Shown: positions 6,219 through 44,151 of the stretch, in pieces
How positions within the stretch are numbered: position 1 is the stretch's first letter
How the letters are laid out: every line of letters begins with the position of its first letter
DNA from: a virus
Taxonomy: Duplodnaviria; Caudoviricetes
Virus record (IMG/VR): IMGVR_UViG_3300036819_000091
Span: 1 to 58,077 of that record
Strand: one strand, 5' to 3'
Length of the DNA: 58,077 nucleotides
The notes under the pieces: generated by a model
Seen by the model: the letters and a program-made list of their open reading frames with translations, nothing else
Databases searched by the model: none
What the model was told of the DNA's origin: nothing
Position numbers and translations under genes: made by a program

Positions 6219-6791
6219 CTATCGAAGTTCCCACGCGGCGCGGAGCCACCGGGCCGGGTTCAGCCGGGCGCGCCGCTCGGCCGCGAGGATCTGCGCGGCC
6301 ACCGCGGCGTCAGCGGACCCCGGCCACGACCGGTACACCACCAGGCCGCTGCGGTACCGCCAGTAGTTCGACTTGATGCGGTTGCACCGGCCGCAGAGCG
6401 TGACGAAATTCCACAGCACGTTCAGGCCGCCGCACGACCACGGGCGGACGTGATCGAGCTGGAGCTGCCACCCGTCGCCGCACCAGAGGCAGGCGTCCCG
6501 GTCGGCGGCGTACACCGCGCGGCGCAGCAGCACCGGGATGTGGGGACGCCCCTCGCGGCGGTCACGGTGCCACATGCGCCACCGGCACGGCACCAGGCCG
6601 CCGGCCAGGCCGGGCAGCCCGTACACCACGGCCACGGCCAGCAGCGGCCAGCACGGCAGCACCAGCACCGCGGCGGCAGCCAGCCCAGCCCAGCCCAGCG
6701 GCCGGGCCTCGTGCTGCCACCCTGCGGCCAGGCCGGCCAGCAGGCAGGCGTCTGCGCCCAGCAGGTGCAGGCGCGGCCTGCGGCGGGTCAC
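6219..6791 (-). CDS. HNH endonuclease with hydrophobic N-terminus
   Basis: CLWC..QLDHVRPWSCGG..NFVTLCGRCNRIKS; N-terminal hydrophobic stretches; GTGA coupling. Confidence 0.85.
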   Translation of the reverse strand: MTRRRPRLHLLGADACLLAGLAAGWQHEARPLGWAGLAAAAVLVLPCWPLLAVAVVYGLPGLAGGLVPCRWRMWHRDRREGRPHIPVLLRRAVYAADRDACLWCGDGWQLQLDHVRPWSCGGLNVLWNFVTLCGRCNRIKSNYWRYRSGLVVYRSWPGSADAAVAAQILAAERRARLNPARWLRAAWELR

Positions 6792-7413
6792 TGCGGCCAC
6801 CCCCCGTCGTCTTCCAGGGTGTCGGCCTCGGGCAGCAGCGGCAGCCCGGCGGCGCGGCGGTGCGGGTTGGCGGCGCGGCAGCAGTCGGGGCAGACCGGCT
6901 CGAAGCTGCACGGCTGGCCCGGCGCGGGGACGGTCGGCTGGCCGTCCACGTAGATCACGCCGATGGTGGGCACCCGGTCGGGGTCGCACATGAACACCCG
7001 GCCACAGCCAAGGCACCTGGCCAGCAGCATGGCGTACCCCTCGCCTGGCAGCCTCATGACCAGCCGTCCTCTCCGCGCTGCACCGGGTGGCGGTGCTCGC
7101 GCTTCCGGGCCTTGTCGTCAGCGGTCAGCAGGGTGGCGCGGTGCCCGGCGCCGAGACGCGGGTCAGGGAACGCTGCCTGCTGCTGCTGGAAGCACGCCGG
7201 GCACAGCGGCAGCCCGGCGGCGCGGTCGTACTCGTCCTGGTCCCCGGTGCCCAGCCAGGTGTCCGGGTCGGTCTCTGCGTCGGGGTCCCACTCGTGCAGG
7301 ATCCGCTGGGAGCCGTCCTCGTGGCGCAGGTGCGCGTGGCTGCCCCCGGCCTGGTACACCCGGGTGAACACGGGCGCCTGGCCGGGGGGCGAGTCGTAGG
7401 CGTCGGGGGTCAC
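6788..7413 (-). CDS. Two small CxxC hypothetical proteins (6788-7057, 7054-7413)
   Basis: Coupled ORFs with CLGC/CPDC and CPAC motifs. Confidence 0.6.
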
Positions 7414-22310: not shown

Positions 22311-23135
22311 ATGAGCTGGGCGCAGATGGACGACGGATTCCACGACCATCCCAAGGTGCTGGCGCTGTTCGACGCCGGCGACCCGCTCGCCGCCGCCGCC
22401 GCGGTGGGGCTGTGGTCGCTCATGCTGGCGTGGGCCAAGTCGCACGCTGACCCGCAGCGCCCCGACCAGGCCGGCCACGTGCCGGCCGGCCTGGTGTACC
22501 GCACCATGGGCGGCCGGGACGCCGGCGACCGCATCGCCGGCATGCTGGTGGGCGCCCGCGCCGGCCGGGAGCACGGCCTGTGGGAGCCGTGCGACCCCAG
22601 CGGCTGGCGGTTCCATGACTTCGCCTACTGGCAGGAGCTGGAGCAGTGGAAGGCCAGGTCAGAGGCGGGTAAGCGGGGCGCCCGGGCCAGGTGGCAGCCC
22701 CCCGGCCCCGACCTGTTCGGTGGCGACCCCAATGCGGGCGCTATGGCAGCCGCATCGCAGCCGCATGGCAACCGCAATGGGGTAGCCAATGGGGGAGCAA
22801 TGCCCACCACACCACACCACACCACACCACAAAAGAGCTTGGCCGCCGCGCTGCCGCGCTGGAGAGAGTTCTACGGGACCTACCCCCGCAAGGCCAAGCC
22901 CGGCGACGTGGAAAAAGCGTGGGGCCAGGTGCTCCGCGCTGGTGCCGATCCAGACCAGGTGATCGCAGGCGCCCGGCGGTTCGCCGCCGACCCCAACCTG
23001 CCCGAGAAGGGATTCATCCCGTACCCGGCCACGTGGCTGCGCGCCCGCTCGTGGCTCGATGAGGCCCTGCCGCCCCGCCTGGCCGCCAGCGGCCGGCCGG
23101 CGCAGGACGAGGGCGAAGCGCCGTGGGACGCATGA
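22311..23135 (+). CDS. Phage replication initiator / helicase loader
   Basis: N-terminal 'W..MDDGFHDHPK..GLW', C-terminal 'FYGTYPRK..KAW..FIPYPATWL'; precedes the helicase. Confidence 0.8.
   Translation: MSWAQMDDGFHDHPKVLALFDAGDPLAAAAAVGLWSLMLAWAKSHADPQRPDQAGHVPAGLVYRTMGGRDAGDRIAGMLVGARAGREHGLWEPCDPSGWRFHDFAYWQELEQWKARSEAGKRGARARWQPPGPDLFGGDPNAGAMAAASQPHGNRNGVANGGAMPTTPHHTTPQKSLAAALPRWREFYGTYPRKAKPGDVEKAWGQVLRAGADPDQVIAGARRFAADPNLPEKGFIPYPATWLRARSWLDEALPPRLAASGRPAQDEGEAPWDA
22729..22830 (+). repeat. Iteron-like repeats and (CACCA)5 tract; candidate origin
   Basis: Recurrent CAATGG/CATGGC units, then 5 tandem CACCA at 22805-22829 in the initiator linker. Confidence 0.6.
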
Positions 23136-24496
23136 CCGACCGGAGAGGAAACCGCCCCGTGCCAGACGACGAGTACGACGACTACGAGGAAGGCGGCGGC
23201 GGCCCGCTGCCCGTGCACGACATCGAGGCCGAGCGGTGGTGCCTTGGCGGGTGCATGCGCAGCCGCGGCGCGCTGAACGAGGTAGCCGAGCTGCTGGTGC
23301 CCGATGACTTCCTGCGCCCGGCGCACGGCATGATCTACGAGGCGATGATCGTGCTGTTCGCGCAGGGCATCCCGGTTGACCCGGTGACGCTGAACGCGGA
23401 GCTGCACCGCCGCAATCAGGTCGGGGTGACCGGCGGCCCGATGTACCTGGCGGGCATGTACGGCGACGCGGTAGCCGTGACGGCCCCGGCTGCGGTGGCC
23501 CACGCGGAGGTAGTCCGGGAGTGCGCTGCCCGCCGGCACGTGGGCGAGATCGGGTCGCGGCTGGTGCAGGGCGCCAGGGAGCGGCACACCGACCTGGCCG
23601 AGCTCGTGACCGGGGCGCAGGCAGACGTGGGCCGGGCCGTGGCCACCGCGGCGGCGGCGCGCAGCCACCTGTCGCAGGTCATGACGGTGGACCGGTTCTT
23701 CGCGCTGGACACCACCCGGCTGGGCCCGGTGATACCGGGCCTGCTCGACCACCAGGACCGGGTACTGGTCTGCGGCTACGAGGGTGACGGCAAGACGACC
23801 CTGGCCTACCAGGTGGCGGTGGCTGCGGCGGCGGGGGTGCACCCGTTCGCGTGGTCGGCCATCCCCCCGGTGCGGGTCATGATCATGGACTTCGAGAACC
23901 CGACGCACCTGATGCAGCGCAAGCTCCAGCGCCTGGTAGACGTGGCCGCGCGGTCGCCGCGGTGGACCCCGGAGAATCTCTACCTGGCCAGCATGCCGGG
24001 CGGCACCGACGTGACCAAGCCCGCCGACGTGATGCGCCTGGCCGACATGATCCGGCTGGCGCAGCCCGACCTGATCATCGCCGGCCCGATCTACAAGATG
24101 TTCCTGGACCGGGGCCAGGGCGCCGAGGAGCTGCACAGCCAGGTGACCGGGTTCTGGGACATGATCCGCGAGCGGTACGGGCCGGCGATGTGGCTGGAGA
24201 CGCACCCCCCCGGCTCTGCCGCCGGGGGCGCGCGGCTGCTGCGCCCGGCCGGGTCAGCGATCTATATGCGGTGGCCCGAGTTCGGGTTCGGGCTGGCGCG
24301 CGGCAAGCGGGGCACCCTCAAGATCCAGCGGTTCCGCGGGGACCGCGAGGAGGGCCGCCCGTGGCCGGTGTCGATCACCCGGAACGGCACGCCCGGCGGG
24401 TGGCCGTGGGCCGCGACCTACGATAACGGGATGTTCCTGGATGAGCCGGCGGCCATCGAGCAGGGCGCAGGCGCGTACGCGGCGGCGGCCGGGTGA
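23132..24496 (+). CDS. Replicative helicase (DnaB N-terminal domain + RecA/AAA_25-type ATPase)
   Basis: 'PVHDIEAE..LG..DFLRPAH..IYEA..PVDPVT'; Walker A GYEGDGKT. Confidence 0.85.
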   Translation: MTDRRGNRPVPDDEYDDYEEGGGGPLPVHDIEAERWCLGGCMRSRGALNEVAELLVPDDFLRPAHGMIYEAMIVLFAQGIPVDPVTLNAELHRRNQVGVTGGPMYLAGMYGDAVAVTAPAAVAHAEVVRECAARRHVGEIGSRLVQGARERHTDLAELVTGAQADVGRAVATAAAARSHLSQVMTVDRFFALDTTRLGPVIPGLLDHQDRVLVCGYEGDGKTTLAYQVAVAAAAGVHPFAWSAIPPVRVMIMDFENPTHLMQRKLQRLVDVAARSPRWTPENLYLASMPGGTDVTKPADVMRLADMIRLAQPDLIIAGPIYKMFLDRGQGAEELHSQVTGFWDMIRERYGPAMWLETHPPGSAAGGARLLRPAGSAIYMRWPEFGFGLARGKRGTLKIQRFRGDREEGRPWPVSITRNGTPGGWPWAATYDNGMFLDEPAAIEQGAGAYAAAAG

Positions 24497-25467
24497 CCGG
24501 CTACCAGCGGGCCGGGCTGAGCGCGGAGCCGGGGTTCCGCGCGTGCCCCGACTGCGGGTCTGCCTCTGCCGCGCCGGGCACCGCGGACGGCGCCCCGTGC
24601 CCCAGCCCGTGGCACACCAGCCTGGTGGCCCGGGCGCAGGGCCGCACCCTGGCCCCGGCCGACCTGGAGCCGGCGCACGCGGCCAGCCCCGGCCCCGACG
24701 CGCTGGTCACCAACCGCCACGGCGAGCGGGTGCTCGGCCCCGGCACCACGGTGCACCCGCTGCACAGCCTGTGCGGCGAGTGCGCCTACCCGGTCACCCT
24801 GGCCGAGGCCGCCGCGCGGTGGACGCACGACGACACCGGCCGGTACGTGCTGGTGCCCGAGAGCCGCCAGCCGGTGGCCTGGGTCGGCCCGCCGGACGGG
24901 GCGCGCACCGTGGGCGGCATGGGCGTGGGCGTGACCCTGTTCGGCACTGAGCCGCCCGCCCCGGTGGTGGCCGTGACCGTGGCCGGGCGGGTGGCGCCGC
25001 AGGGCTCCAAGTCGGCGTTCAGCCCGTGCTACCAGGACGCCGCCCGGTGCACCCGGTGCCGCCGCGCGCACCTGGTGAAGATCAACCAGGTGGAGAAGTC
25101 GAAGTACCTCAAGGCGTGGCGGGAGGCGGTGGCCGCCGCCGCCCGGCAGCAGTACGACGGGCCGCTGCTCGACGGGCCGCTGTCCGGGTCGATGATCTTC
25201 TCGCTGGAGCGGCCCGGCAGCCACTACCTGCACCGCAAGGCAGGCGACGTGATCCGCCCCGACGCCCCGCTGTACCCGGCCGACACCCCCGACCTGTCGA
25301 AGCTGCTGCGCGCCACCGAGGACGCGCTGACCGGCACGGTGTGGGTGGACGATGCCAGGGTGGTCACCTACACGTGCCTGCGCATGGTGTACGCGCAGGA
25401 CAGCCCCCTGGTGCCCGGCGCCCCGCCGGGACCCGGGGCATCGATCGTGGTCACGCAGCAGGCGTGA
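24493..25467 (+). CDS. rusA: RusA-family Holliday junction resolvase with N-terminal extension
   Basis: 'G..APQGSK..WR..V..RP.SH..PDLSKLLRATEDALTG.VW.DDARVV'. Confidence 0.85.
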   Translation: MTGYQRAGLSAEPGFRACPDCGSASAAPGTADGAPCPSPWHTSLVARAQGRTLAPADLEPAHAASPGPDALVTNRHGERVLGPGTTVHPLHSLCGECAYPVTLAEAAARWTHDDTGRYVLVPESRQPVAWVGPPDGARTVGGMGVGVTLFGTEPPAPVVAVTVAGRVAPQGSKSAFSPCYQDAARCTRCRRAHLVKINQVEKSKYLKAWREAVAAAARQQYDGPLLDGPLSGSMIFSLERPGSHYLHRKAGDVIRPDAPLYPADTPDLSKLLRATEDALTGTVWVDDARVVTYTCLRMVYAQDSPLVPGAPPGPGASIVVTQQA

Positions 25468-26227: not shown

Positions 26228-27499
26228 ATGAGCGACACGCAGAACGGCATCACCCTCGCAGCCCGCGCCACCGACCTGGCCAACCTGCGGGCGGTCCTGG
26301 AGGACCAGCGCGCACGGGCCATCGACCTGGTGATGACCCCCGGCCACTACGCGGCCGATGGGGGCAGCATCGTCATCACGGGCGCCGAGCAGGTGCTGGA
26401 GGAGAACGGCATCACCGACCCCAACGGCCGGTATGCCCCCACCCGGGTGGCCATCGACGGCCTGGCCGAGAAGCTGGGCATCCACGCCAGCTACCTGCGG
26501 CGCATCGCCGCTGACCGGCCGGACCTGTTCGACCTGAACGTGAACGGGCTGCTGCACGGCACCCCCGGCCCGCAGGGCCCGGACGGTGCCCCGTACCCGC
26601 CGCTGGCCGCCAAGCTGATGCTGCGGCTGCTGCGCGGAGACCAGAGCGGCACCGGGGTACTGCGGGCCGTGCTCAGCAACAGCTACCAGCGGATCGACAA
26701 CCTGGACGTGCTGGTGGCCGCGCTGGGCGGCGTGCGGGACGCCGGCGTGGCGGGCCGGGTGACCCGGTGCGACCTGACCGAGACGCGCATGGTCGTCGTG
26801 ATCGAGGCCCCCGAGATCAGGGCGCAGGCCCCGGGCCTGCTGGCCGGGTACCGTGACCCGTTCGGCCGGGGCGGGGTGGAGCGCATCCGGCAGCTTGCGC
26901 AGCGCGAGGGCCTCGGCTACGAGCCCGGCACCGAGCCGGTGATGCACGCCGGCATCAAGATCTCCAACTCGGAGACGGGCGACGGCCGGTTCACGGTCAG
27001 CCCGCACCTGACGGTGCAGATCTGCCGCAACGGCTACACCGTCAAGATGGACGCGCTGGGCGCCACCCACCTTGGCGGCAAGCTGGAGGAGGGCCTGGTG
27101 CGGTGGTCTGCGGCCACGCAGCGCAAGGCCCTGGAGCTGGTGGCCAGCAAGTCGCAGGACGCGGTGGGCCAGTTCCTGTCGGGCGAGTACCTGGAGCGCA
27201 AGGTCGCGGAGTGGGCCGAGCAGGCCGGCACCCCGGTCAAGGCCCCGGCCGAGACCATCACCGCCATGGTGCGCGCCAGTGCCATCCCCAACGCCTACGC
27301 CGACGAGATCCTGAACTGCTTCATCGCCGGGGGCCAGCTCACGGCGGGCGGGGTCATGCACGCGGTGACCGCCGCCGCGCAGACCGTGCAGGACGGCGAC
27401 CTGGCCGACCTGATGGAGCAGGAGTCGGTGGGGGCGCTGGCCTACGCGGCGGGCAACGCCGAGCGCATCGCGGCCAGGGCCGCCGCGCACGCCAGCTAG
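26228..27499 (+). CDS. DUF932-like phage/plasmid protein
   Basis: 'QLA/LAEKLGI..Y..R' N-part; 'RAVLSNSYQRIDN', 'GIKISNSETG.G..V.P..C.NG..H.G'. Confidence 0.75.
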   Translation: MSDTQNGITLAARATDLANLRAVLEDQRARAIDLVMTPGHYAADGGSIVITGAEQVLEENGITDPNGRYAPTRVAIDGLAEKLGIHASYLRRIAADRPDLFDLNVNGLLHGTPGPQGPDGAPYPPLAAKLMLRLLRGDQSGTGVLRAVLSNSYQRIDNLDVLVAALGGVRDAGVAGRVTRCDLTETRMVVVIEAPEIRAQAPGLLAGYRDPFGRGGVERIRQLAQREGLGYEPGTEPVMHAGIKISNSETGDGRFTVSPHLTVQICRNGYTVKMDALGATHLGGKLEEGLVRWSAATQRKALELVASKSQDAVGQFLSGEYLERKVAEWAEQAGTPVKAPAETITAMVRASAIPNAYADEILNCFIAGGQLTAGGVMHAVTAAAQTVQDGDLADLMEQESVGALAYAAGNAERIAARAAAHAS

Positions 27500-27875: not shown

Positions 27876-29869
27876 CCGGCCCGTACCGGGAGGCCGACAT
27901 CCTGGCCGCCCATGCCGCGATACAGGCCGACCTGGACCGGGCCGTGCCCGAGCAGCGGTGCGAGAACTGCGGGTGCCTGTACGCCGCGCACTGCGGGCAC
28001 CACCTGCGCCCGTGCTGCCCTGGTCTCTGCCGCGGCGCCGGCCGGCCCGGCTCGCGGGTGACCCGCCGCAACTACCGGCTGGCGTGGGCGTTCGTGCTGT
28101 ACTCCTGCGGCGTGATGGAGTTCACCCGCACCGGGTTCACCTGGCCGCTGGGCCTGGCCCTGGCCCTGATGACGACGGCTCTGGCGGCCGGGCGCCGCTT
28201 CGGGCACGGCGGCTGGCGCGGGCCGTGGTGACCGGCCGCGAGGGCCGGCCCCGCCCGGCGGCGCCGCCCGTGCCGCGCCCGGCCGCCCGCGCCCAGTGGC
28301 AGGTCCCCGACGACGTGCCCGCCGAGCCCGAGCTGGAGCTGGAGCCGGTGTACATCCCCGACGTGGTGTTCCGCGGCGGGCTGGGCACCGGGTGGGACGG
28401 GCCGGTCAGGTGAGGCACCCCGGCCCCGACCCGGCGGCGATCATCGCCAGCCGGGGGCGCACCCCGGCGGCCCGGCCCATGGTGCAGGACGCCCTGTTCA
28501 CCGAGGACGAGGCCCGCCAGCCCGCCAAGTGCGGCCGCACTTCGCCGCCGCACATGCCGCTGCCAGACGGGGCGTGCACCTGCGGGGCGGCCGGGTGGCT
28601 GGCCCTGCTGACGTGCGGGTGCTGGTCGTGGTCGCACGGCCAGCCGCCCGTGGGCGGGTACGTCACGTGCGGCGCGTCTCTGGCCCACCAGACCAGCTAC
28701 CGGGTCCTGGAAGTCCGCGAGGGCCCGCCGTGACCGGCGTGCAGGGCGAGCTGTTCGCCGGCCCGACGCCGGGCACCCGCGCCGTGCTGGACTGGGCGCA
28801 TGTCATCCACCCGGCAGGCCCCCGGTGGGACTGGGCGGTGGCCGCCGCCGCGGCGCTCGATGCGGGCGGCCCCGACGCCGAGCTGCCGCCGTTCCCCAGC
28901 CACCTGCCCGCCACCCGCCGCGCCCGCGAGGCCGCGCTGCGCCGCGTCCACCGGGACGCGCGGCAAGTACCGACGACGCACCACCAAGGAGGCAGCCATG
29001 GCCACCACCCGGCCTGACCGGTACCGGCACGCAGAGGCGTTCGCGCTGATGACCTACCAGGCTGACGACGGCAGCGAGCGCGCCACGGTGTTCAACAGCC
29101 GCGACGGGGTCACCCCGTTCGTGGTCACCCTGCCGTCTGGCAAGGTGGCCAGCCACGTCAACTGGCAGGCCGACCGCGCCGCCCCGGACCACCAGCCCCG
29201 GCCCGGTGACCTCGTGTTCATCGACCTGACCCCGGAGCGGGCCAGGGCCAGGGCCGCCGCCAACTACGACCGGTTCGCCGCGGACCCCGACATGGCCGTG
29301 CACCTGCGCCGGCTGGGCGCCACCCGCGAGCAGGCAGAGGCGCGCCTGGCCGCCACGTACCTGGTGCCCGGCGCCCCCGACATGATCACGTGGCCCGCGC
29401 CGTGACCGGCCCGCAGGCGCTGGCTGCGCACCTGGCCGGGTGCCGCCCGGTGCAGGCCGCGCTGGTGGCTGACGGCAGCGCCGACGACACCGTGACCGCG
29501 ATGCTGGCCGCCGGGTGGACGCTGGAGCCCGGCACCGAGCTGGTGGCAGGCAAGCGCGTCCGGTACCTGCGGCCCCCGGCGGCGCCGTGGGATGCCGCCC
29601 CGGCGGTGCCCGCGCAGTTCGCCGTGGTGGAGGACTTCCTGCGGTTCCTGGTGGCCCGCCCCGAGCTGCTGGACGCGGCCCCGGACCCGTGGCCGGCCAT
29701 GGACACCGCCGGGCGGCTCGCGGCGGGGCACTCGTGCTTCCGGTGCGCCGGCGTGGCCCGCGCCGCCGTGGTGTGCACCGAGCCGCCGGACGCGACCTGG
29801 CCCACCCGGTACCGGTGGCTGGACCTGTGCTGGCCCTGCTACGACGACATCAGGGAGGCGCACCTATGA
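27872..29869 (+). CDS. Six hypothetical proteins (27872-28231, 28228-28413, 28410-28733, 28730-29017, 28998-29405, 29402-29869)
   Basis: ATGA/GTGA-coupled chain. Confidence 0.65.
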
Positions 29870-30567
29870 CCGACCCCGCGTTCCGCCTGGCCGCGCAGGA
29901 GTTTGACCCGGCCATCCCGGTGGCGTCTCTGGCCGAGCACCCCGACAACCCCAACAAGGGCGACACCGAAGTGATAGCCGAGTCGCTGGACGCGCACGGG
30001 TTCTACGGGGCGGTGCTGGCGCAGCGGTCTACCGGGCGGGTGCTGGCGGGCAACCACCGGCTCCGCACCGCGGTGGCGAAGGGCGCCACGACCCTGCCGG
30101 GGTTCTGGCTGGACGTGGACGACGGCGAGGCCGAGGCCATCATGGCCGCCGACAACGAGTCCACCCGCCGCGGCGGCTACGACGAGGGGAAGCTGCTGGC
30201 CCTGCTCCAGCGGCGCAGCGCCAGCAGCCAGGGCCTGTTCGGCACGGGGTTCACCGATGCCCGGCTGGAAGACCTGCTCCACAAGTGGCAGCCCGACCCG
30301 CTGAACGGGCAGGAGGGCGACTACCAGGGGCAGGGCGGCGCCGGGTGGAACGACCCCGACCAGCCCGGCGGCAACCGGGGGCCGGCGGGGCCGCCGCTGG
30401 GCGCAAGGGGCATCCGGGACATCATCCTGGCGCTGCCCAACGACCAGGCCGACCGGCTGGCCGCCGCGGTGCGGGCCCTGCGCCACGAGTGGGACGCTGA
30501 CATGACCCAGGGCGAGGTGCTGCTGCGCGCCGCCGAGCTGGCGGTGGAAGGGCTGGAGGGCAGATGA
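29866..30567 (+). CDS. ParB N-terminal domain protein
   Basis: 'L.EHPDNPN.GD..IAESL..HGF..VLAGNHRL.A..ADN'. Confidence 0.88.
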   Translation: MTDPAFRLAAQEFDPAIPVASLAEHPDNPNKGDTEVIAESLDAHGFYGAVLAQRSTGRVLAGNHRLRTAVAKGATTLPGFWLDVDDGEAEAIMAADNESTRRGGYDEGKLLALLQRRSASSQGLFGTGFTDARLEDLLHKWQPDPLNGQEGDYQGQGGAGWNDPDQPGGNRGPAGPPLGARGIRDIILALPNDQADRLAAAVRALRHEWDADMTQGEVLLRAAELAVEGLEGR

Positions 30568-31262
30568 CGGTGCGGGCGTTCTGCATCAGCGCGCGGCGGC
30601 CCAACGCGGTGCCCGCCATGGAAGCGCAGGGCCTGCCGCTGACGTGGCTGGTGCCCGCCGACGACGCCCCCGACTACCGGGCGATGGGCGCCAGCGTGGT
30701 GCCGGTGCATGATGAGCCGGGCGAGTACAACCTGCCGCGCGCCCGGAACCTGGCCCTGGACCTGGCCGCCGGCACCGGGCACGTGTGCGTGCAGACCAGC
30801 GACGACCTGCGCCGCCTCGACATGCGCCGCGACGACGGGTGGGCCACCGCCGACCTGGCCGGCGCGGCCCGGCACCTGTACGTGGTGCTGGCCGCGACCG
30901 GCGCGAAGCTGGCCGGGCTGCCGCCCACCGCTAACCGGTACTTCGCCCGGCCCGGCGTCATGACGCGCGGGTTCGTCGTGGGTGACCTGCTGGCGGTGGC
31001 GCCCAGCGCGCCCCGGTTCGACGTGACGCTGCCGCTCAAGGAGGACTACGACTTCACGTGCCTGCACCTGGCCGCGTACGGGCAGGTGGCCCGCACGGGC
31101 GACATGGTGGCCGACTACCGGCACTACCGCAACGCGGGCGGCGCGGTGGCGTACCGCACCGACGCCCTGGAAGACGACACCGCCGCCCGGCTGCTGGCCC
31201 GGTGGCCGCAGTACCTGCGGCCCAACCCGAAGCGCGCCCACGAGCTGCTGGTGCGACGGTGA
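30564..31262 (+). CDS. TET-associated (GREB1/J-GT-like) glycosyltransferase
   Basis: 'ISARRP..V..Y..ARN..Q.SDD..FD..KEDYDF..H..G.V.R..NAGGA' pattern; context next to TET/JBP. Confidence 0.8.
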   Translation: MTVRAFCISARRPNAVPAMEAQGLPLTWLVPADDAPDYRAMGASVVPVHDEPGEYNLPRARNLALDLAAGTGHVCVQTSDDLRRLDMRRDDGWATADLAGAARHLYVVLAATGAKLAGLPPTANRYFARPGVMTRGFVVGDLLAVAPSAPRFDVTLPLKEDYDFTCLHLAAYGQVARTGDMVADYRHYRNAGGAVAYRTDALEDDTAARLLARWPQYLRPNPKRAHELLVRR

Positions 31263-32242
31263 GGCCGCAGGCGCCGTACAGCATGCAGGTGGAGGCCACC
31301 GAGGGCTGCAACCTGCGGTGCTCGTTCTGCGGCATCCGGGGCATCCGCGAGGCGGGCGGCCGGGGTGACCTGTCGGGGCCGTACCGGTTCATGACGCCGG
31401 CCACCGCCGCGCTGGCCGCGCAGCAGGCCCGGCAGGCCATGTGGAACCCGCGCGTCGAGTTCGCCATGCACGGCGAGCCCGCCGCCAACCCGGACCTGCC
31501 GCTCCTGGTGTCGGCGTTCCGGCAGGCGCTGCCCCGGGCGCCCATCATGATCACGACCAACGGGATACCGCTGCTGGGCCGGTGGCGCTCCGCGGTGTCC
31601 GACCTGTACGACGCCGGCGCCGACACCATCGCCGTGGACAACTACCGCCCCTACCGGTGCGAGCCGTCCGTGCTGGGCACGGTGCTGCCCGGGGTGGGCG
31701 TGTACCGGTACCCGCAGGGCGGCCCGCTGGGCAACCCGCACCGCCGCCCGGCCCGGCACGAGCGGCGCCTGGTGCTGGTGCAGGACATCAGCCAGGCCGA
31801 GGACGGCACCCACGCGCACCTGTCCAACCACGCAGGCGCGGCCGGCCCGCCCGACCCCAGCCGCGACCGGGAGCGGTGCGCGCTGCCGTTCCGCGAGATC
31901 TCCGTCCGGTGGGACGGGTCCGTGGCGCTGTGCTGCAACGACTGGCGCGGCGCTTACAAGGCGGGCACCGTGGCCGACCCGGGGCTGCCCGCCATCTGGG
32001 AAGGGCCGGCGTTCGCCGCGGCGCGCAGCCACCTGTACCGGGCCACCCGCGATTTCGCGCCGTGCCAGGGCTGCACGCACCGCACCTACCGCAACGGGCT
32101 GCTGCCCGACAAGCACGGCCGGGAAGACTGGCCCGCCCCCACCGCGGATGACGAGGCGGCCATCGCCGCGGCGCTGGAAGGCGACCCGTACACCGCCCCG
32201 GTGCGCCGCAAGTGGGAGCTGCCCGTGGTGGAGGTCACATGA
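31259..32242 (+). CDS. Radical SAM enzyme with SPASM/twitch domain
   Basis: CNLRCSFC, HGEP, TTNG; C-terminal 'CALPF..V.WDG.V.LCCNDW..IW..PCQGC'. Confidence 0.92.
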   Translation: MRPQAPYSMQVEATEGCNLRCSFCGIRGIREAGGRGDLSGPYRFMTPATAALAAQQARQAMWNPRVEFAMHGEPAANPDLPLLVSAFRQALPRAPIMITTNGIPLLGRWRSAVSDLYDAGADTIAVDNYRPYRCEPSVLGTVLPGVGVYRYPQGGPLGNPHRRPARHERRLVLVQDISQAEDGTHAHLSNHAGAAGPPDPSRDRERCALPFREISVRWDGSVALCCNDWRGAYKAGTVADPGLPAIWEGPAFAAARSHLYRATRDFAPCQGCTHRTYRNGLLPDKHGREDWPAPTADDEAAIAAALEGDPYTAPVRRKWELPVVEVT

Positions 32243-33156
32243 TCAGCGTCAGGCTGCGGACCCGCACCCCCCGCCGGGAGCTGGACCAGGTAGCCGGCAT
32301 GGTGCTGGGCGAAGACGCGCACAACCTGCTGCTCACCGGCCCCGCGCAGGTGCTGATGCCAGACGGGCGCCCGCTGTGCGTGTACCTGCCCGGCTGGATG
32401 GCCGGCCACGTCACCGAGGAGCACTACCAGATCCTGCACGGGCTGCGGTCGCAGACCACCGACAATCGCGGCCTGGCCGCCGGGGGCAGGCGGATGCCCC
32501 GCGGCGACCAGAAGCGCACCCGCACCCTGAACGTGGCCAGCGCCATCCTCGGCGCGGTGGACCCCACCGGGACCACCCGGTACTGCCGGCTCACGTCGTG
32601 GACCGGGCAGAATCTGCCCGGCTGGCAGGAGCTGCACGGCCCGCTGCTGCGCGTGGCAGAGGCCATGCGCGAGTACGTGCCCGACCGGACCGCGGTGCAG
32701 CAGGCCGAGATCGACGCCACCCACCCCGACTGGGTAGTGCCCGGCACCCCGTTCACCACGGTGACGGTGAACAACACCTACCCGACCGGCGTGCACACCG
32801 ACAAGGGCGACCTGGCCGCCGGGTTCAGCAGCATTTTCGCCATCCGCCGCGGCGACTGGACCGGCGGGCGGCTGGTGTTCCCGGAGTGGCGGGTGGCCGC
32901 CGACCTGGCAGACGGCGACCTGATCCTGATGGACGCCCACCAGTGGCACGGCAACACGGCCATCACGTGCCGGTGCGGCACCCGCCTGGCCCGCATGTGC
33001 CCGGCCTGCGGCGCCGAGCGGGTCAGCGTGGTGGCGTACATGCGCGCCAAGCTGACCGGGTGCGCCAGCGAGGCCGAGGAGACCGCCAGGGCGATCCGGG
33101 CGCGAGAGGCAGGCAAGGGCCTGGAGCGGGGCCAGCAGCCGCTCAGCACCGAATAG
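32239..33156 (+). CDS. TET/JBP-family 2OG-Fe(II) 5-methylpyrimidine dioxygenase
   Basis: 'CRLT', 'FTTVTVN..HTDKGD' (HxD), 'WHGNT' (H), 'RVSVVAYMR' (2OG Arg). Confidence 0.88.
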   Translation: MISVRLRTRTPRRELDQVAGMVLGEDAHNLLLTGPAQVLMPDGRPLCVYLPGWMAGHVTEEHYQILHGLRSQTTDNRGLAAGGRRMPRGDQKRTRTLNVASAILGAVDPTGTTRYCRLTSWTGQNLPGWQELHGPLLRVAEAMREYVPDRTAVQQAEIDATHPDWVVPGTPFTTVTVNNTYPTGVHTDKGDLAAGFSSIFAIRRGDWTGGRLVFPEWRVAADLADGDLILMDAHQWHGNTAITCRCGTRLARMCPACGAERVSVVAYMRAKLTGCASEAEETARAIRAREAGKGLERGQQPLSTE

Positions 33157-35469: not shown

Positions 35470-36456
35470 ATGGCCGACCTAGACCCACCCGCCGGCCTGG
35501 ACGACGCCCGCCGCGCCATCTGGCGCGCCACCATCGCCCAGGTACTAGAAGCCGGCACCATCGCCCGCCTAGACCTCAACTCCCTCACCGCCTACGTCTC
35601 CGCCGTCCACACCCACCAACGCGCCACCGAACTGATAGCCGCCTCAGACGTCCTCATAGAACGCAACGGCAAACCCGTACCCAACCCCGCACTCGCCGTC
35701 CAGACACAATCCGCCCAGACCATCGCCCTGTTCGCCCGCCAGTTCCGCCTCACCGCCCACACCACCCCAGACGGGCAGCCAGACGACACCCCGCCCCCAG
35801 AGCACCAGCCCCGCCCAGCCGTCGCCAACGGTGCCCCCGCTCCCAGGGATGAGCACCCCGGCACCTGGTGCGAGGAGCACCACCGCTGGGAATGCCGGGC
35901 GCCTAAGTCACGGGGGCGCGGCCCGTGCCACGGCATCGCCACCCGCAGCGGCCGGTGCAGCTTCCACATCGGCGGGCCGGCGGCGCGGGCCAACCACCTG
36001 GCCGCAGAGCTGGTGCGCCGCGACGCGGTGTACGGCACCCCGGAGAAGATCACCGCGGAGGACGCCCTGGTGGGTGAGCTGTGGCGCACCGCCGGGCACG
36101 TGCGGTGGCTGGGCGACCGGGTAGCGGAGCTGGAGGCCACCGCGCTGACGTGGGGCACCACGCAGACGGTGACCCGGTACTGGGGCGAGTTCCCCGGGCA
36201 GGAGCGGGTGGCACGGGCCGGGCCGCACATCCTGCTGGAGCTCTACGACCGGGAGCGCAAGCACCTGGTTCACGTCGCCGCGGAGATCATCCGGGCGGGG
36301 CTGGCGGCCAAGCTGCTCGACACGGCGCAGCGGCAGGGCGAGGCGTACGCCAAGTGCACCGACGCGATCCTGCATGACCTGGAGCTGTCGCCTGCGCAGT
36401 GGGCGCAGGTGCCGGTGGTGGTGCCGCGCCGGTTCAGGGAGCTGATGGCGTCATGA
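35470..36456 (+). CDS. Terminase small subunit (P27-family domain fused to a Cys/His domain and helical C-terminus)
   Basis: 'A..IWR..D..L.AY..NG..V.NPAL..FA.QF.LT', then 'C.A..G.PC..RC.FH.G'. Confidence 0.75.
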   Translation: MADLDPPAGLDDARRAIWRATIAQVLEAGTIARLDLNSLTAYVSAVHTHQRATELIAASDVLIERNGKPVPNPALAVQTQSAQTIALFARQFRLTAHTTPDGQPDDTPPPEHQPRPAVANGAPAPRDEHPGTWCEEHHRWECRAPKSRGRGPCHGIATRSGRCSFHIGGPAARANHLAAELVRRDAVYGTPEKITAEDALVGELWRTAGHVRWLGDRVAELEATALTWGTTQTVTRYWGEFPGQERVARAGPHILLELYDRERKHLVHVAAEIIRAGLAAKLLDTAQRQGEAYAKCTDAILHDLELSPAQWAQVPVVVPRRFRELMAS

Positions 36457-39400: not shown

Positions 39401-41135
39401 ACGGCGGCGACTGGCCCGGCCATGGGTGACCGCGGCGTGCTGCTGGCACCAGGCCCTGGCCTGTCCCTGGCGGCGCTGTGCGACTGCGGGCAGGCCACCA
39501 CCCTGGCGCTGCTGCCCGTCCACGACGGCAGGCCGATACCGCGCGGCACCCCGCTGGGGCCGCCCGCCGCCCAGGAAGTGGCCTACACCTGCACCGGGTG
39601 CGGCACAGCCCACTGGCTGACCATCGCCCCGCAGCCAGACGGCAACATAGCCGTGACCGCGCAGCGGCCCGGCCGCCACCAGCAGCCGCCGCGCCGGGTG
39701 GTGTCCTGGACGGACGGCTGGTACACGCTGCCGCAGTAGGCTCCGCTGCCCCGGCCGGTGACAGCGCCGGACAGCGCGCCGCCCAGATGACGGCACCCGG
39801 GCCGGGGCAGCGGACACCACCAGGAGGGCGCCGTGGGCGAGTGCCGCATCTGCCGGCCTCCCGAGCCCGTGCCCGACCGGGCCCTGCTCGACCACCTGCG
39901 GGTGCTGCACCCCGACCAGTGGGCAGAGCTGGCCGCGTGGCCGGACGGCTCCCTGGTCCTGGAGGAGCCCGACGCCGACCCCGGAGACTGCCCGACGCCG
40001 CCCCCGCGACGCTAGGATGACCGCTGCCGGGACGGGGGACCTGCCCGGCGCCCGTGCACCCCGCATCGCCCGGCCGCCCGGTCAGCGCCATTCAGCGTTT
40101 CCGGGCGGGCAACGCCCAATCGGCCCTGTACGCCATTCACCCCGATGCCCTGTAGGCGGCACCCATGACGTACCCGACCCCGCTGGGGCTGCCCTGGACC
40201 CCCGAGGACGCCGCCGCGGTCCTCGGCCCCGCCGCCGACGCCGCCCTGCTGCGCCTGCTGGTGGCAGAGCTGGCCGTCCCGCAGGTGGCGCCGGGCCGGT
40301 GGGACGCAGCCGACCTGCTGGGCCTCCACTGTGCTCTCGCGCCGTGGCTGGCGCGGCGTAGACTCCGCGTGACCGACCTGACCGGAGGGGCCAATGGGAC
40401 GCCTGCCGCTGCTGCGAGCGGAGACCCGCTGGGAGTGCCCCAACTGCCCGGAGACCGCCCTGACCACAGAGGCGCACCCGCATACCCGGTTCCACCAGTG
40501 CCGGGGACTGCACGGGCTGACTGTGCCGCTGGTGCAGGCCGGGACTGACTGCAAAGTCGAGGCCATCGACCGCGAGGACTACGTAGGCGCAGACCACGGC
40601 GCGGTGCAGCTCGCGCCGGGCAACGGGCGCCCGTACATGGCCGCCCGCACCACCCGCGCTGACGGGTCGAACGACACCACCGTGTATGCCCCCGTGGCGA
40701 GAGGAAGGCTGGCCCATGGCCGACGCCGAGTTTGACCGCCTGGTGCAGGAGCACCTGGACCGCGCCGCCCCGGCCTTCCAGGACCGGGTGGCCACGTTCA
40801 TGGGCGCCGCCCGCGACCACACCGCCGCGCAGGCCGCCGCGGCGGCAGAGGCGGCAGACAGCGCCCGGGCCAACGTGGACCACCAGCGGGAGGTAGCGCA
40901 GCGGCTGGTGGACACCGCCGCCGAGCAGGCCGAGAACGCGGCGGCGCAGGCGCAGGCCGCGCAGGCCGAGGCCGACAACTGGGCCGGGTTCGGCGAGGAC
41001 GCCCTGGCGCTGGCCCGCGAGACCGTGACCGCCGCTGACCTGGCCGCCGCGCGGCTGGCCGCCGCCGGGGAGCTGGCCGCAGGCGACACCACCGTGCAGG
41101 CCGGCGTGGCCAAGGGCCAGGCGAGCGCGTCATGA
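36453..41135 (+). CDS. Run of about 17 small hypothetical proteins (36453-36638, 36635-36853, 36850-37272, 37269-37514, 37514-37708, 37705-37920, 37974-38201, 38198-38410, 38410-38625, 38631-38768, 38768-38989, 38986-39429, 39422-39739, 39833-40015, 40165-40548, 40394-40735, 40716-41135)
   Basis: Nearly unbroken ATGA/GTGA/TGATG coupling; many CxxC; 38631-38768 has a TM segment. Confidence 0.6.
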
Positions 41136-41611
41136 GCTGGTCTGGCAGCCACATGTTCCGGCAGTGGATAGCGGACAACCTCACCCACACCGCGACGCCC
41201 AACTACTCGACCGACGCCCCGAAAGCCGCCCTGTACGGCAGCACCGGCACCCCGGACGAGAATGTCTCCGCGGCGCTGTCGGCGTACAACGCCGGCCAGT
41301 GGGTGACCGCCAACGAGGTTTTCCAGGCGGGCCAGTGGGCGCAGGGCGGCGTCGCGCTGGGCAGCCCCAGCGGGGTGACCCACTTCAACGACACCGCCGA
41401 CGCGGTGTGGTACGACGCCAACGACACCGCCTCTGGCACCGCGGCGACCCTGGCCGGCGTGTTCGGCACCGAGGTCTACGACGACACGCTCACCACCCCG
41501 GTGGCCGACCAGGGCATCTGCTTCAACTACTTCGGGGGCACGCAGTCGGTCACGGCGGGGCAGTTCACGGTGGTGTGGAACGCACTGGGCATCTGGCGCG
41601 TAACGCTGTAG
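41132..41611 (+). CDS. Probable minor virion / fibre-associated protein
   Basis: 'KAALY..NEV..GG..L..YDA.D..YDDT..FGG..G.FTVVW..GI' pattern that I recognise from phage structural regions. Confidence 0.6.
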   Translation: MSWSGSHMFRQWIADNLTHTATPNYSTDAPKAALYGSTGTPDENVSAALSAYNAGQWVTANEVFQAGQWAQGGVALGSPSGVTHFNDTADAVWYDANDTASGTAATLAGVFGTEVYDDTLTTPVADQGICFNYFGGTQSVTAGQFTVVWNALGIWRVTL

Positions 41612-41635: not shown

Positions 41636-43825
41636 GTGGCCGGCCCCGGCCTGATCTTCACCGCGACCACCGGGGCTGCGCTCACGGCCACCACCGGGCT
41701 GCACCTGGTGGCGTCTGCCACCGCGGCGCCGGCCGGGGTGGCGCAGGCCGCCGCGACCGCTGAGGCCGCCACTGTCCTGGCGGCCCCGCACCCGCCGGCT
41801 GCCGCGGTCACTGCTGCGGCAGAGGCACCGGCCGGGCGCACAGCCCCGCAGCCGGCTGCGGCCACAGCCGCCGCGGTGGCGCAGGCCCCGTCTGTCACGT
41901 CGGTGTCGCTGACCGCCGCGCCGGCCGGGCTGGCCGCTGCCACTGCGGCAGCCCCCGCGCCTGGTGCCCTGGTCGCGCCGGCGGCGGCGGCGGCGACACC
42001 GGGTGCCTCTGCGCCGCAGCCCGCCGCCGCGGTGGCCGCCCGCCCGCCGCAGGCCGCAGCCACCGCAGTGGCCGAGCCGCCCGCAGTCACCGCGGTGGCC
42101 GCCACCAGCGCGCCCGCCGGGCTGGCGTCTGCCGCTGCCGCAGCGCCAGGCCCTGCCGTGCTGGTGGGGGCGGCCCCGCCCGCTGCTGCCGCCGCCGCAG
42201 CCGGCGAGCCGCCGCTGGCTGCCGTGGCATCCCGCGCTGCCGTGGCCGCCGCCGTGGCTGCCGCACCCGGGCCGCTGCCCGGCGCGGCCGGCCGCCCGGC
42301 CGCTGCCACCGCTGCCACCGCGGCAGAGGCACCCGCGGCGGCCATCGCCGTTGCGGCGCAGCCCGCGCAGCCCGCAGCCACGGCACCCGGCCCGCTGCCC
42401 GCCCCGGGTGCCAGGCCGCCAGCCGCCACCGCAACGGCGACCGCCGAGCCGCCAGCGGTCAGCACCGTGTCGGCTGCCAGCGCCCCGGCCGGGGTGGCGC
42501 AGGCCAGTGCCGCAGCACCCGGCCCGGCTGTCCTGGTCGCGGCGCAGCCGCCCGCTGCCGTGGCCACGGGCACCGCAGAGCCGGCCGGCCCGCTGGCGGC
42601 GCCGCGCCCGCCGGCCGCGCAGGCCACCGCGACCGCTGAGCCGCCCCGCGCCGCGGCAGCCGCCACCCCGGCGGCAGCGGCAGCCGCCGGCACCGCACCC
42701 CAGCCAGCCGCCAGCGTGGCCGCCCGGGCACCGGCCGCCGCCGCCACGGCCACGGCCGAGCCGGCCGCCGTGAGCACGGTCACGAGCACCAGCGCCCCGG
42801 CGGGGGCGGCGTCTGCCACGGCCAGCGCACCCGGCCCGGGCGCGCACGTGGCCGCCGCGCCCGGCCCGGCCGCCGCTGCGGCCACCGCGCAGCCGCCGCG
42901 CCCCGCGCCCGCCGCCATGGCACCCGCAGCCGCCCCCGCCGCCGCGGCGCCGCAGCCGCGTACTGGCGTGGCCGGCCTGGCACCGGCCGCTGGCGCTGTG
43001 GCCGCAGCGCCGCCGCCCGCCGCCGGCATCGGCGCCCGGCCGGGCACGGCCACAGCGGGCGCCACGGCCCCGCAGCCGTCTGCGGCCACCGCGGCGTCGG
43101 TCAGCGCCCAGGCCGGGTGCGCGCCTGCGTCTGCTGCCGCGCCTGCGCCCGCCGCGGCGGTAGCCGCACGGCCACCCGCAGCCACCGCCGCGGGCGCCGC
43201 GCCGCCGCCGGCCCCGGCAGTGGCCGCCCGCCCGGCGCCTGCTGCTGCCACCGCCACGGCAGAGGCGCCTGCGGTCACCACCGCGGTGACCACCAGCGCC
43301 CCCGCCGGGGCAGCCGCTGCCGCCGCCGCCGCGCCCAGCCCGGCAGCAGCGGTGGCCGCGCCAGCCCAGCCAGCGCAGCCCGCCGCAGCCGCGCCCCGCC
43401 CGGTGCCTGCCGTGGCACCAGCCGCCAGCACAGCCGCAGCCGCGGCGACCGCGCCGCCGCCTGCCGCGTCGGCGGTGCCGGTTACCATGGCTGCGGCCGG
43501 CCTGGCGCATGCCTCTGCCGCCGGGCTGGCCGCTACAGCCGCCGTGGCCGCCCGCGCCGGCCTGGCCGCCGCCCTGGCCCTGGCCGTGCCGCCGTTCGCG
43601 CTGGTGCCCCCGGCGGTGCAGCTCTCGCCCATGGACGCCGGCGCCCCCCACGGCCGGTGGGCCGCCGGGCAGCCGCAGCAGCCCCGCGTGTCCGCTGCGG
43701 CGCCGGGCGCCAGGTGGGCGGGCGGCAAGCCAGCCGGGCGGTGGGACGCGGAAAGCGCGGCCGGTCGTTACGCTGCTGGTACCCCGGTGTCAGTGTGGGA
43801 CGCCGGGCAGCCCCACGGCCCGTAG
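41636..43825 (+). CDS. Ala/Pro/Thr-rich repetitive protein, probable fibre
   Basis: RBS GAGGAGG; repeated 'ATAE(P/A)PAV..V..SAPAG.A.A.A.AP' units. Confidence 0.7.
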   Translation: MAGPGLIFTATTGAALTATTGLHLVASATAAPAGVAQAAATAEAATVLAAPHPPAAAVTAAAEAPAGRTAPQPAAATAAAVAQAPSVTSVSLTAAPAGLAAATAAAPAPGALVAPAAAAATPGASAPQPAAAVAARPPQAAATAVAEPPAVTAVAATSAPAGLASAAAAAPGPAVLVGAAPPAAAAAAAGEPPLAAVASRAAVAAAVAAAPGPLPGAAGRPAAATAATAAEAPAAAIAVAAQPAQPAATAPGPLPAPGARPPAATATATAEPPAVSTVSAASAPAGVAQASAAAPGPAVLVAAQPPAAVATGTAEPAGPLAAPRPPAAQATATAEPPRAAAAATPAAAAAAGTAPQPAASVAARAPAAAATATAEPAAVSTVTSTSAPAGAASATASAPGPGAHVAAAPGPAAAAATAQPPRPAPAAMAPAAAPAAAAPQPRTGVAGLAPAAGAVAAAPPPAAGIGARPGTATAGATAPQPSAATAASVSAQAGCAPASAAAPAPAAAVAARPPAATAAGAAPPPAPAVAARPAPAAATATAEAPAVTTAVTTSAPAGAAAAAAAAPSPAAAVAAPAQPAQPAAAAPRPVPAVAPAASTAAAAATAPPPAASAVPVTMAAAGLAHASAAGLAATAAVAARAGLAAALALAVPPFALVPPAVQLSPMDAGAPHGRWAAGQPQQPRVSAAAPGARWAGGKPAGRWDAESAAGRYAAGTPVSVWDAGQPHGP

Positions 43826-43836
43826 GGAGGCACCCC

Positions 43837-44151
43837 ATGATCCCGGTCACGTCCACCGAGTACCTGTTCGTGCCGGTGTTCGGCCCGCAGGGCACCGACC
43901 CCACGCAGTACACCGCGCAGGTGGCCCTGGTAGCCGAGGGCCGCGAGCCCGGCGACGGCGACTGGCACGCGGCCACGTGGCTGGCCCCCGCGCCCGCGCA
44001 GGACCCGCAGGCCGCGCTGCTGGTTGGCCCGGGTACCGGCGCGGTGGCGTACCCGCAGGGCGAGTACGTGGCATGGGCCAAGCTGGCGGCCGGGTCAGAG
44101 GCCCCCGTGATGAAGTCCGGCCGGGTGCGCATTGGCGACGCTGGGCTCTGA
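43837..44151 (+). CDS. Small beta-rich (Ig/BppU-like) virion protein
   Basis: RBS GGGAGG; 'STEY..V..DPT..W..LLVGP..G.Y..W.K..E.PV..G'. Confidence 0.55.
   Translation: MIPVTSTEYLFVPVFGPQGTDPTQYTAQVALVAEGREPGDGDWHAATWLAPAPAQDPQAALLVGPGTGAVAYPQGEYVAWAKLAAGSEAPVMKSGRVRIGDAGL

Follow-up and report, generated by a model that had tools for sequence, protein, structure and literature searches.

The phage thymine dioxygenases described in 2026 are activated by ParB homologues, and in vivo ParB lifted the formation of 5-hydroxymethyluracil (5hmU) from about 1% to 25–35% (PMC13229309). Thymidine hypermodification clusters are modular, a Tet_JBP dioxygenase can replace the dUMP hydroxymethylase as their feed, and the only radical S-adenosylmethionine (SAM) enzyme known to work on DNA adducts is gp53 of phage M6, which resembles the spore photoproduct lyase (SPL) (PMC8989533). 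The tailoring classes named in August 2026 are radical SAM isomerases, pyridoxal phosphate (PLP) decarboxylases, flavin lyases and acetyltransferases (PMC13458397), and a pair formed by a glycosyltransferase (GT) and a sugar-type radical SAM enzyme is absent from the classes in that text. Such a pair lies within the four-gene cassette considered here, found in the IMG/VR virus record IMGVR_UViG_3300036819_000091, the whole of which (58,077 bp, with an estimated completeness of 79%) was analyzed and is called the window. The genes encode, in this order, a ParB-like protein (P0001), a GT of the TAGT family (P0002), a twitch-domain radical SAM enzyme (P0003) and a dioxygenase of the TET/JBP family (P0004).

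Our tentative reading, to which we give rather less than half of our confidence, is that the cassette would serve the post-replicative hypermodification of thymidine in a high-GC actinophage, with the radical SAM enzyme tailoring a sugar already bound to the DNA. It is argued from the neighborhoods of homologous genes, by which the constant partner of the radical SAM enzyme is the GT and not TET, and from the profiles and predicted folds of the proteins themselves.

A constant pair with an interchangeable source of 5hmU

The P0003 family comprises 552 proteins at E ≤ 0.001 (candidates scored), forms 141 clusters at 50% identity at E ≤ 1e-30, and occurs in at least 448 stretches of the JGI metagenomes, with named members from Actinomadura (A. 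graeca among them) and Nocardiopsis. In tblastn searches of 50,697 GenBank phage records, P0003 (E 1e-5) and P0002 found no match, and the radical SAM homologue of the low-GC locus L011 found a single one, unannotated and at 22% identity, so that no cultured phage is tied to the family. The neighborhoods were surveyed in 22 IMG/VR records and in 80 metagenome loci, which represent 74 distinct sequences of the radical SAM enzyme; both surveys cover the returns of pattern scans, with local hidden Markov models (HMMs) built from few sequences, and they are not independent because contigs are shared between them (for example, L102 is L023, and L106 is L006).

An earlier note on this DNA held that its reading would be refuted if homologues of the radical SAM gene did not co-occur with TET/TAGT genes, and this test came out in its favor, since they do co-occur with TAGT-type transferases. 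Of the 80 metagenome loci, 76 contain a GT (TAGT-like in 62, GT4-like in 19), which in 75 of those 76 is no more than 300 bp away from the radical SAM open reading frame (ORF), and the four loci without it are only 1.3–5.7 kb long; among the viral records, the TAGT family PF20691 is found in 17 of the 22 at E ≤ 0.05, with 14 over the cut-off, a P0002-type GT was found additionally by tblastn in L004, L016 and L017, and L003 has a GT4-like gene in its place. TET is not the constant partner, since Tet_JBP occurs in four of the 22 viral records and in nine of the 80 metagenome loci, and the radical SAM gene in only two of 62 loci chosen from the side of TET (the contigs of L002 and L003). More frequent are the 5-hydroxymethyldeoxyuridine (5-hmdU) DNA kinase, HMUDK, and a homologue of thymidylate synthase (TS), present respectively in 16 and 13 of the viral records and in 60 and 56 of the metagenome loci (either of the two in 65), while ParB is found in seven of the latter. 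TET together with HMUDK or TS was found in none of these 80 loci, and neither source of 5hmU in six, four of which are shorter than 7 kb. By gene content, thus, the source of 5hmU is interchangeable, being either TET with ParB or else HMUDK and/or the TS homologue.

The two genes also share a strand, as the nearest GT is co-oriented with the radical SAM gene in all 100 loci where it lies within 600 bp, upstream in 76 and downstream in 24. Fusions of TAGT with the radical SAM/twitch enzyme were recognized by Pfam in P0202 (588 aa) and P0226 (579 aa), and by the local HMMs in P0046 (570 aa); the three fall in different 50%-identity clusters, an assembly frameshift being possible for any single one, and no fused ORF occurs in the 110 surveyed loci. 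The complete set of four is found again, in varied order and at 48–70% GC, in L004, L023/L102, L101, L141, L145, L147, L157 and L158 at least, and in L026 (Actinomadura rayongensis DSM 102126) the order is radical SAM gene, ParB, GT4-like gene and TET. The linkage in 76 of 80 loci, the common strand, the fusions, and a membership that is kept while the order varies all argue that the GT and the radical SAM enzyme cooperate. It could still be supposed that the radical SAM gene is an anti-defense or metabolic gene standing in the operon by chance, given that many phage radical SAM genes have no assigned role and that viperin-like enzymes appear far down the list of folds similar to P0003; with so constant a GT neighbor, however, with a module generating 5hmU in all but those six loci, and with fusion to TAGT in three proteins, we regard this as very improbable.

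In a FastTree phylogeny of 97 distinct radical SAM sequences, 10 of the 11 TET-linked ones form one clade (support 97), nested among the HMUDK-linked sequences, and L145 stands apart. On this tree the source of 5hmU must have changed at least twice, but the tree is from FastTree only, has many long branches and is no more than indicative. As a separate observation, a contig of a Bacteroidales metagenome-assembled genome (MAG) carries a second and different radical SAM gene (L027:1051–2355, + strand, 434 aa, PF04055, with a weak DUF1848-like match), which follows a ParB-like gene and lies just upstream of the TAGT–radical SAM pair.

The radical SAM enzyme

P0003 matches Radical_SAM PF04055 (E 5.1e-11; 43.5 bits, cut-off 29.5) and SPASM PF13186 (E 1.7e-10; 41.5 bits, cut-off 21.5), and the CX3CX2C motif of the superfamily, formed by C17, C21 and C24, is invariant in 53 sequences. 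Its GTG start is supported because the conserved Q3 and P6 precede the first Met. In the C-terminal part five cysteines, and only these, are invariant in the same 53 sequences (C207, C225, C226, C269 and C272), of which C207, C225, C269 and C272 align with the auxiliary-cluster cysteines of BtrN, which we take to be the ligands of that cluster. The expression “Cys4 ligation” in PMC10337720 agrees with these roles.

BtrN also comes first when the family profile is searched against the PDB (E 6e-20), with anSME, SpeY, MoaA and NifB a long way behind, and again when the AlphaFold2 (AF2) model of P0003 (pLDDT 92.6) is compared by Foldseek (E 4e-14, target-normalised TM 0.81), followed by SpeY, a twitch radical SAM dehydrogenase, and by PqqE, DesII, AbmM and BlsE. 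SpeY, DesII, AbmM and BlsE are sugar or cyclitol enzymes. By its sequence, then, P0003 is of the BtrN-type twitch subclass, with one auxiliary 4Fe-4S cluster held by four cysteines, and not one of the seven-cysteine SPASM enzymes with two clusters; the two Pfam matches, the cysteine count and the alignment with BtrN bear out the assignment of the third gene to the radical SAM/twitch enzymes that the earlier note had made. The profile and fold matches, with BtrN at the top of both and mostly sugar or cyclitol enzymes after it, would predict an enzyme that acts on a carbohydrate, and we predict accordingly that P0003 tailors a sugar by radical chemistry.

Two details of the family may be added. 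Cys226 (window 31934–31936), which adjoins a ligand of the auxiliary cluster and is invariant in the 53 homologues, is Phe in BtrN, and by analogy with the radical SAM epimerases it could act as a hydrogen-atom donor. In the homologue P0214 (623 aa), an intein with an HNH endonuclease separates the radical SAM core from the twitch domain.

The glycosyltransferase

The 73 database homologues of P0002, three of which carry PF20691, form a family that hhalign aligns over its full length (223 columns) with the PF20691-positive group (98.7%, E 2e-16), whose first member, from L011, scores E 6e-18 on PF20691. The AF2 model of P0002 (pLDDT 97) has a GT-A fold, its best Foldseek matches are the GT-A glycosyltransferases AvpGT, LH3, ColGalT1, WrtF, RmlT and TarS, and the DxD motif (D80–D81) and D161 are invariant in 43 sequences. 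P0002 is accordingly placed in the TAGT family, a name reportedly given by Iyer et al. in 2013, by its full-length profile homology and by the GT-A fold with DxD, and not by its Pfam score; we predict, from homology and model, a divergent member that glycosylates 5hmU in DNA. The prediction of a complex between P0003 and the GT gave a score of 0.00, under the mark and without a verdict, which is evidence neither way.

The GT-A fold is common to nucleotidyltransferases, and these are present lower in the Foldseek list of P0002. One explanation that can draw on this is that the target of the radical SAM enzyme is not a sugar but the base or its linkage (a C–C bond at the 5-methylene might be formed, for instance), and that the GT-A protein may transfer something other than a simple sugar. 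Among radical SAM enzymes that hypermodify DNA, the only characterized one rearranges the linkage at the 5-methyl carbon (PMC8989533), and most relatives of the cassette have the 5-hmdU kinase, which would activate that carbon. Nevertheless, P0003 is not SPL-like and its best matches are sugar dehydrogenases, a kinase is absent from the window and from the other TET-type loci, and for P0002 the DxD motif, like the TAGT match given by hhalign, favors a glycosyltransferase, so that we hold this explanation to be unlikely.

Homologues of P0002 are also found in eukaryotes, namely P0196–P0198 from the dinoflagellate Polarella glacialis (on contigs of 84–377 kb) and P0183 from an MMETSP transcript, with E values of 1e-31 to 2e-10 against P0002 and weak PF20691 matches. 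Dinoflagellate DNA is rich in 5hmU, and these TAGT-like homologues are hints that part of it could be glycosylated.

The dioxygenase, its ParB-like partner and the target base

P0004 matches Tet_JBP PF12851 (E 2e-15, 56.8 bits, and 58.3 in a second scan, against a cut-off of 34.9), and neither its iron triad (H186xD188 and H237) nor its 2-oxoglutarate Arg (R261) varies among 53 relatives, which places it in the TET/JBP (5mYOX) family; a single-sequence phmmer search of the PDB sequences with P0004 returned nothing. As to the C-terminus, which is extended in the ParB-dependent thymine dioxygenases (PMC13229309), about 36 residues follow the last conserved Arg of the core in P0004, and C275 and E281 are invariant within the relatives compared. 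Residues 244–258 (window 32968–33012) form a zinc-ribbon-like insert in the core (CxC...CxxC, with a weak DZR match), which is not kept among the 53 relatives.

What the closest dioxygenases have around them is informative. In the 62 IMG/VR loci that hold P0004 relatives at 40–65% identity, ParB is found in 35 and a TAGT-like GT in 10. Pfam scans of ten intervening genes from four of these loci gave an amino acid:DNA transferase (AADT) in all four, as well as a P-loop nucleotide kinase (kinase3), PLP enzymes and an FAD oxidoreductase, and iterated local HMMs extended this to AADT in 48 of the 62, kinase3 in 52 and a PLP enzyme in 19. The same local HMMs found AADT, kinase3 or PLP genes in none of the radical-SAM-holding loci searched, the window included. 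This ParB/AADT/kinase architecture is the one given for the ParB-dependent thymine dioxygenases (PMC13229309), and because the relatives share it, P0004 is best read as a ParB-activated thymine dioxygenase; in the cassette itself ParB lies upstream in the operon, PF00145 is lacking, and the relatives are linked to thymidine hypermodification. We thus predict, by analogy with these relatives, that P0004 oxidizes thymine with 5hmU in DNA as the product, and the cassette as a whole is best read, from its gene content, as a ParB-activated thymine dioxygenase system whose decorating genes have been exchanged.

P0001 matches the PHROG families of ParB-like partition proteins (phrog_723, E 1.2e-31), and a profile of nine homologues, through query positions 6–110 only, matches the N-terminal nucleotide-binding domains in structures of Noc, ParB and Spo0J (E 5e-9 to 1e-6); the profile was needed, as a single-sequence phmmer search against the PDB sequences gave nothing. 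The protein has an N-terminal ParB/Srx nucleotide-binding domain, in which N28/G32 and G62 of the GNHR box are invariant in the nine sequences, then a Gly/Pro-rich linker and a short conserved helical C-terminal part. The assignment of this gene in the earlier note therefore holds through phrog_723 and the profile, but its role there as a mere companion does not, since homologues activate thymine dioxygenases (PMC13229309), and by the same analogy P0001 is a predicted activator of P0004.

As to the base, the dioxygenase had been proposed to act on 5-methylcytosine (5mC) or thymine, and of these the sequence evidence retains thymine, with 5hmU as its product, as the most likely and sets 5mC aside, because the record has no C5-cytosine methyltransferase (PF00145) anywhere, the relatives of the TET stand with AADT and kinase3, and the partners of the module elsewhere are HMUDK and TS. 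For the TS homologue of L011 the nearest match is MilA, a pyrimidine hydroxymethylase (E 4e-20), whose Asp is replaced by Asn in the homologue. In the TS/hydroxymethylase fold, Asn marks the uracil-specific members and Asp the cytosine-specific ones. That the dioxygenase should oxidize 5mC, made by a methyltransferase of the host or of the unsequenced fifth of the genome, and that a tailored glycosyl-5-hydroxymethylcytosine (5hmC) should result, draws on the phage TETs of other clades, which do oxidize 5mC (PMC8256090; bioRxiv 10.1101/2023.12.21.572611), and on the incompleteness of the record. A further point in its favor is L024, a contig of a Patescibacteria MAG in which a C5-methyltransferase-like ORF of 231 aa (6336–7031, + strand; PF00145, 1e-8, N-terminal half only) lies directly 3′ of the radical SAM gene; but L024 itself also has HMUDK and the TS homologue. 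Since the closest TETs sit with the ParB, AADT and kinase3 of thymidine machinery, and the module is otherwise accompanied by HMUDK and by a hydroxymethylase homologue that carries Asn, we consider an origin from 5mC to be decidedly unlikely.

A proposed pathway and the place of the radical step

If we accept the homologies presented above, the cassette could act as follows: (i) the dioxygenase P0004, activated by the ParB-like P0001, would convert thymine in the phage DNA to 5hmU, as its characterized homologues do; (ii) P0002, judging by its family and fold, would move the sugar of a host nucleotide-sugar onto the 5-hydroxymethyl group, giving a glycoside similar to base J; (iii) and finally, P0003, as its fold and gene linkage suggest, would abstract a hydrogen from the DNA-bound sugar, most likely turning a secondary alcohol into a ketone, as BtrN and SpeY do, with deoxygenation or epimerization as alternatives. 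The product would be a tailored glycosyl-5hmU with no match among the described DNA bases, and its likely benefit would be to shield the phage DNA from host nucleases. The GT and the radical SAM enzyme would in this way constitute a portable decorating module, which in most other phages would be fed with 5hmU by an enzyme of the dUMP-hydroxymethylase type together with the 5-hmdU DNA kinase.

We infer the radical reaction to be the third chemical step, after the transfer, although it could equally prepare the sugar donor first. The alternative would then be that P0003 converts a host nucleotide-sugar into a keto, deoxy or epimerized form before the GT transfers it to 5hmU, and never touches the DNA. 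Its solved relatives BtrN, SpeY, DesII, AbmM and BlsE act on free or nucleotide-linked sugars; the epimerase-paired GTs of phage 5mYOX clusters depended on the epimerase, which was read as supplying the donor (bioRxiv 10.1101/2023.12.21.572611); and the tight linkage and the fusions of GT and radical SAM enzyme fit the channeling of a substrate equally well. On the other hand, the DNA polymer is the substrate of the tailoring enzymes known from thymidine hypermodification, the radical SAM isomerase of M6 among them (PMC8989533), and the order of the genes, with the GT mostly upstream, is a weak argument against preparation of the donor. The P0003 family is, moreover, mostly basic, with an isoelectric point above 7.5 in 45 of 53 members, which speaks for DNA as a weak hint and does not separate a DNA substrate from a nucleotide-sugar. 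Conversion of the donor is therefore, in our judgment, a serious alternative though a doubtful one, and it predicts, just as the tailoring of a DNA-bound sugar does, a glycosylated thymine without a counterpart among the described bases.

Several points weigh against the tailoring of a DNA-bound sugar by this cassette and have to be set beside the evidence in its favor. Firstly, the close structural relatives of P0003 all act on small molecules and not on polymers, and the published precedent for a partner of the GT in 5mYOX clusters is the donor-supplying epimerase just mentioned. Secondly, two of the assignments lie below the reach of Pfam: P0002 scores 14.7 bits on TAGT PF20691 (E 0.03), under the cut-off of 27.5, and a Pfam scan of P0001 gave no match at E ≤ 1, ParB included. 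Thirdly, HMUDK stands beside the GT in most relatives, which is unexplained, and the window itself has no such kinase, while a dioxygenase that requires O2 shares an operon with an O2-sensitive Fe–S enzyme. Finally, the missing part of the record could hold a methyltransferase, and the chemistry is deduced, no modified base being known for any member of the module.

Genomic context

The four genes are coupled as had been proposed, the ORF coordinates and the letters at the junctions (ATGA at 30564, GTGA at 31259 and ATGA at 32239) agreeing on the overlaps; likewise, the catalytic motifs said to be intact in each gene correspond to invariant residues in the alignments of homologues, and the HMM, profile and structure searches confirmed all four family assignments. 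The GC content of the record is about 72–77% over most of its length, and the third-position GC of the four frames is 0.83–0.97, which in DNA of 75% GC makes them look like real genes. The cassette is placed, by Pfam and PHROG scans, between the replication genes and the packaging genes (Table 1).

Table 1. Features of the window in and around the cassette
Feature	Coordinates	Strand	Basis or remark
DnaB	23123–24496		replication gene
RusA-domain protein	24493–25467		replication side
423-aa protein	26228–27499	+	phrog_1362, E 1e-71
159-aa ORF, no assigned function	29390–29869	+	stop overlaps ParB start via ATGA at 29866
P0001, ParB-like protein, 233 aa	29866–30567	+	phrog_723; nine-homologue profile against the PDB
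P0002, putative divergent TAGT-family GT-A glycosyltransferase, 232 aa	30564–31262	+	profile homology; AF2/Foldseek fold
P0003, BtrN-like radical SAM enzyme with twitch domain, 327 aa, GTG start	31259–32242	+	Pfam, profile, fold
P0004, TET/JBP-family Fe(II)/2-oxoglutarate dioxygenase (5mYOX), 305 aa	32239–33156	+	PF12851, motifs
Small terminase (TerS)	35470–36456		packaging
159-aa ORF before the 729-aa frame	41132–41611
729-aa open frame	41636–43825	+	nearly all Ala, Pro, Thr, Gly
Large terminase (TerL)	44132–45745		packaging
Portal	starts 45968		packaging side
Protease	starts 48109		packaging side
Capsid	starts 51430		packaging side
RecT/YqaJ pair		opposite to cassette

The 159-aa ORF immediately upstream is translationally coupled to the ParB gene, since its stop overlaps the ParB start. 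It matched no Pfam or PHROG family and showed no conservation across 14 other TET-type loci, and is probably outside the module. Scans of the cassette flanks with Pfam and PHROG gave no modification-related family, and when ten flanking ORFs were compared by tblastn with the same 14 loci, recurrence was seen for the small terminase alone. TET is directly followed by a small terminase in L004 and L026.

Other features of the record are given as observations. The phrog_1362 protein belongs to a family without known function, and in low-GC relatives a DUF932 protein lies near the modification genes, in a similar place. The gap of about 7.7 kb between the two terminase genes is filled by small ORFs and by an Ala-rich frame of 729 aa, which has degenerate tandem repeats of 18–60 bp and falls in a stretch of 84% GC (42001–44000); the opposite strand is also open, so that the true frame is uncertain.

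Relation to known systems

Each of the families, the modular logic of the pathway and, since 2026, the ParB/TET pair were already known, and what would be new is the combination of TAGT with a twitch radical SAM enzyme. A search of the literature found no description of such a pair of TAGT with a SPASM/twitch radical SAM enzyme; supplementary tables, such as Dataset S10 of PMC13229309, lay outside that search and may list Radical_SAM. That P0003 acts on the DNA-attached sugar, and that the GT–radical SAM pair, sometimes fused, marks an undescribed hypermodified thymine, we put forward as a possibility still short of probable. If true, this would be the first radical tailoring of a carbohydrate on a nucleic-acid polymer, with a keto-, deoxy- or epimerized glycosyl-5-hydroxymethyluracil as its product, and the base would be spread over hundreds of uncultured phages, from the prophages of soil actinomycetes to marine viromes, fed by ParB/TET or by a dUMP hydroxymethylase. 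The pair is widespread, and among the cultured phages of the collection searched none represents it; it offers the prospect of a new DNA base, of a new class of substrate for the twitch radical SAM enzymes, and possibly of a reagent for labeling DNA or making it resistant to restriction, and the cassette is a natural test bed for the activation of thymine dioxygenases by ParB.

With the ParB-dependent phage thymine dioxygenases (5mYOX clade C1; O’Toole et al., PNAS 2026, PMC13229309), enzymes that need their ParB to oxidize thymine in double-stranded DNA, the cassette shares a Tet_JBP gene beside a short two-domain ParB homologue, the lack of a C5-methyltransferase and a position near the packaging genes, and its closest TET relatives have the AADT and the P-loop kinase. 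The difference is in the decoration, which in those systems falls to AADT, kinase and PLP enzymes and here would fall to a TAGT GT and a twitch radical SAM enzyme; the terms “radical SAM”, “rSAM” and “SPASM” are absent from the main text of that paper. The base J of kinetoplastids, made by JBP1/2 and then a glucosyltransferase (as given in PMC13229309), resembles the proposed product in the passage from thymine to 5hmU and to glycosyl-5hmU with a transferase of the GT-A type, whereas the cassette belongs to a phage, is predicted to depend on ParB and would add a radical SAM step.

The 5-NedU pathway of Pseudomonas phage M6 (Lee et al., NAR 2021, PMC8989533) likewise has a radical SAM enzyme inside a thymidine cluster based on 5hmU, but gp53 is SPL-like and acts on an amino-acid adduct, whereas P0003 is BtrN-like, of the twitch type and paired with a GT; no SPL was found among the Foldseek matches of P0003 that were listed, and none of the phages in the collection searched by tblastn, in which the presence of M6 is unconfirmed, gave a match. 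As for the enzymes of aminoglycoside and aminocyclitol metabolism, BtrN and SpeY, which are radical SAM dehydrogenases, have the CX3CX2C motif and the four-cysteine auxiliary cluster in positions that align with those of P0003, and the same dehydrogenase activity is, from profile and model, the most likely one for it; P0003 has an identity of only about 19% and differs in having some 75 extra residues, a C-terminal extension among them, the additional Cys226 and the context of phage DNA modification. Finally, the pairs of GT and sugar epimerase in 5mYOX clusters (bioRxiv 10.1101/2023.12.21.572611) also set a DNA GT and one sugar-modifying enzyme beside a TET-like dioxygenase, but there, in a text that makes no mention of “Radical SAM”, a C5-methyltransferase leads to 5hmC with diverse glycans and the epimerase is of the NAD type, whereas in the cassette the corresponding place would be taken by a BtrN-type radical enzyme acting on a glycoside of 5hmU.

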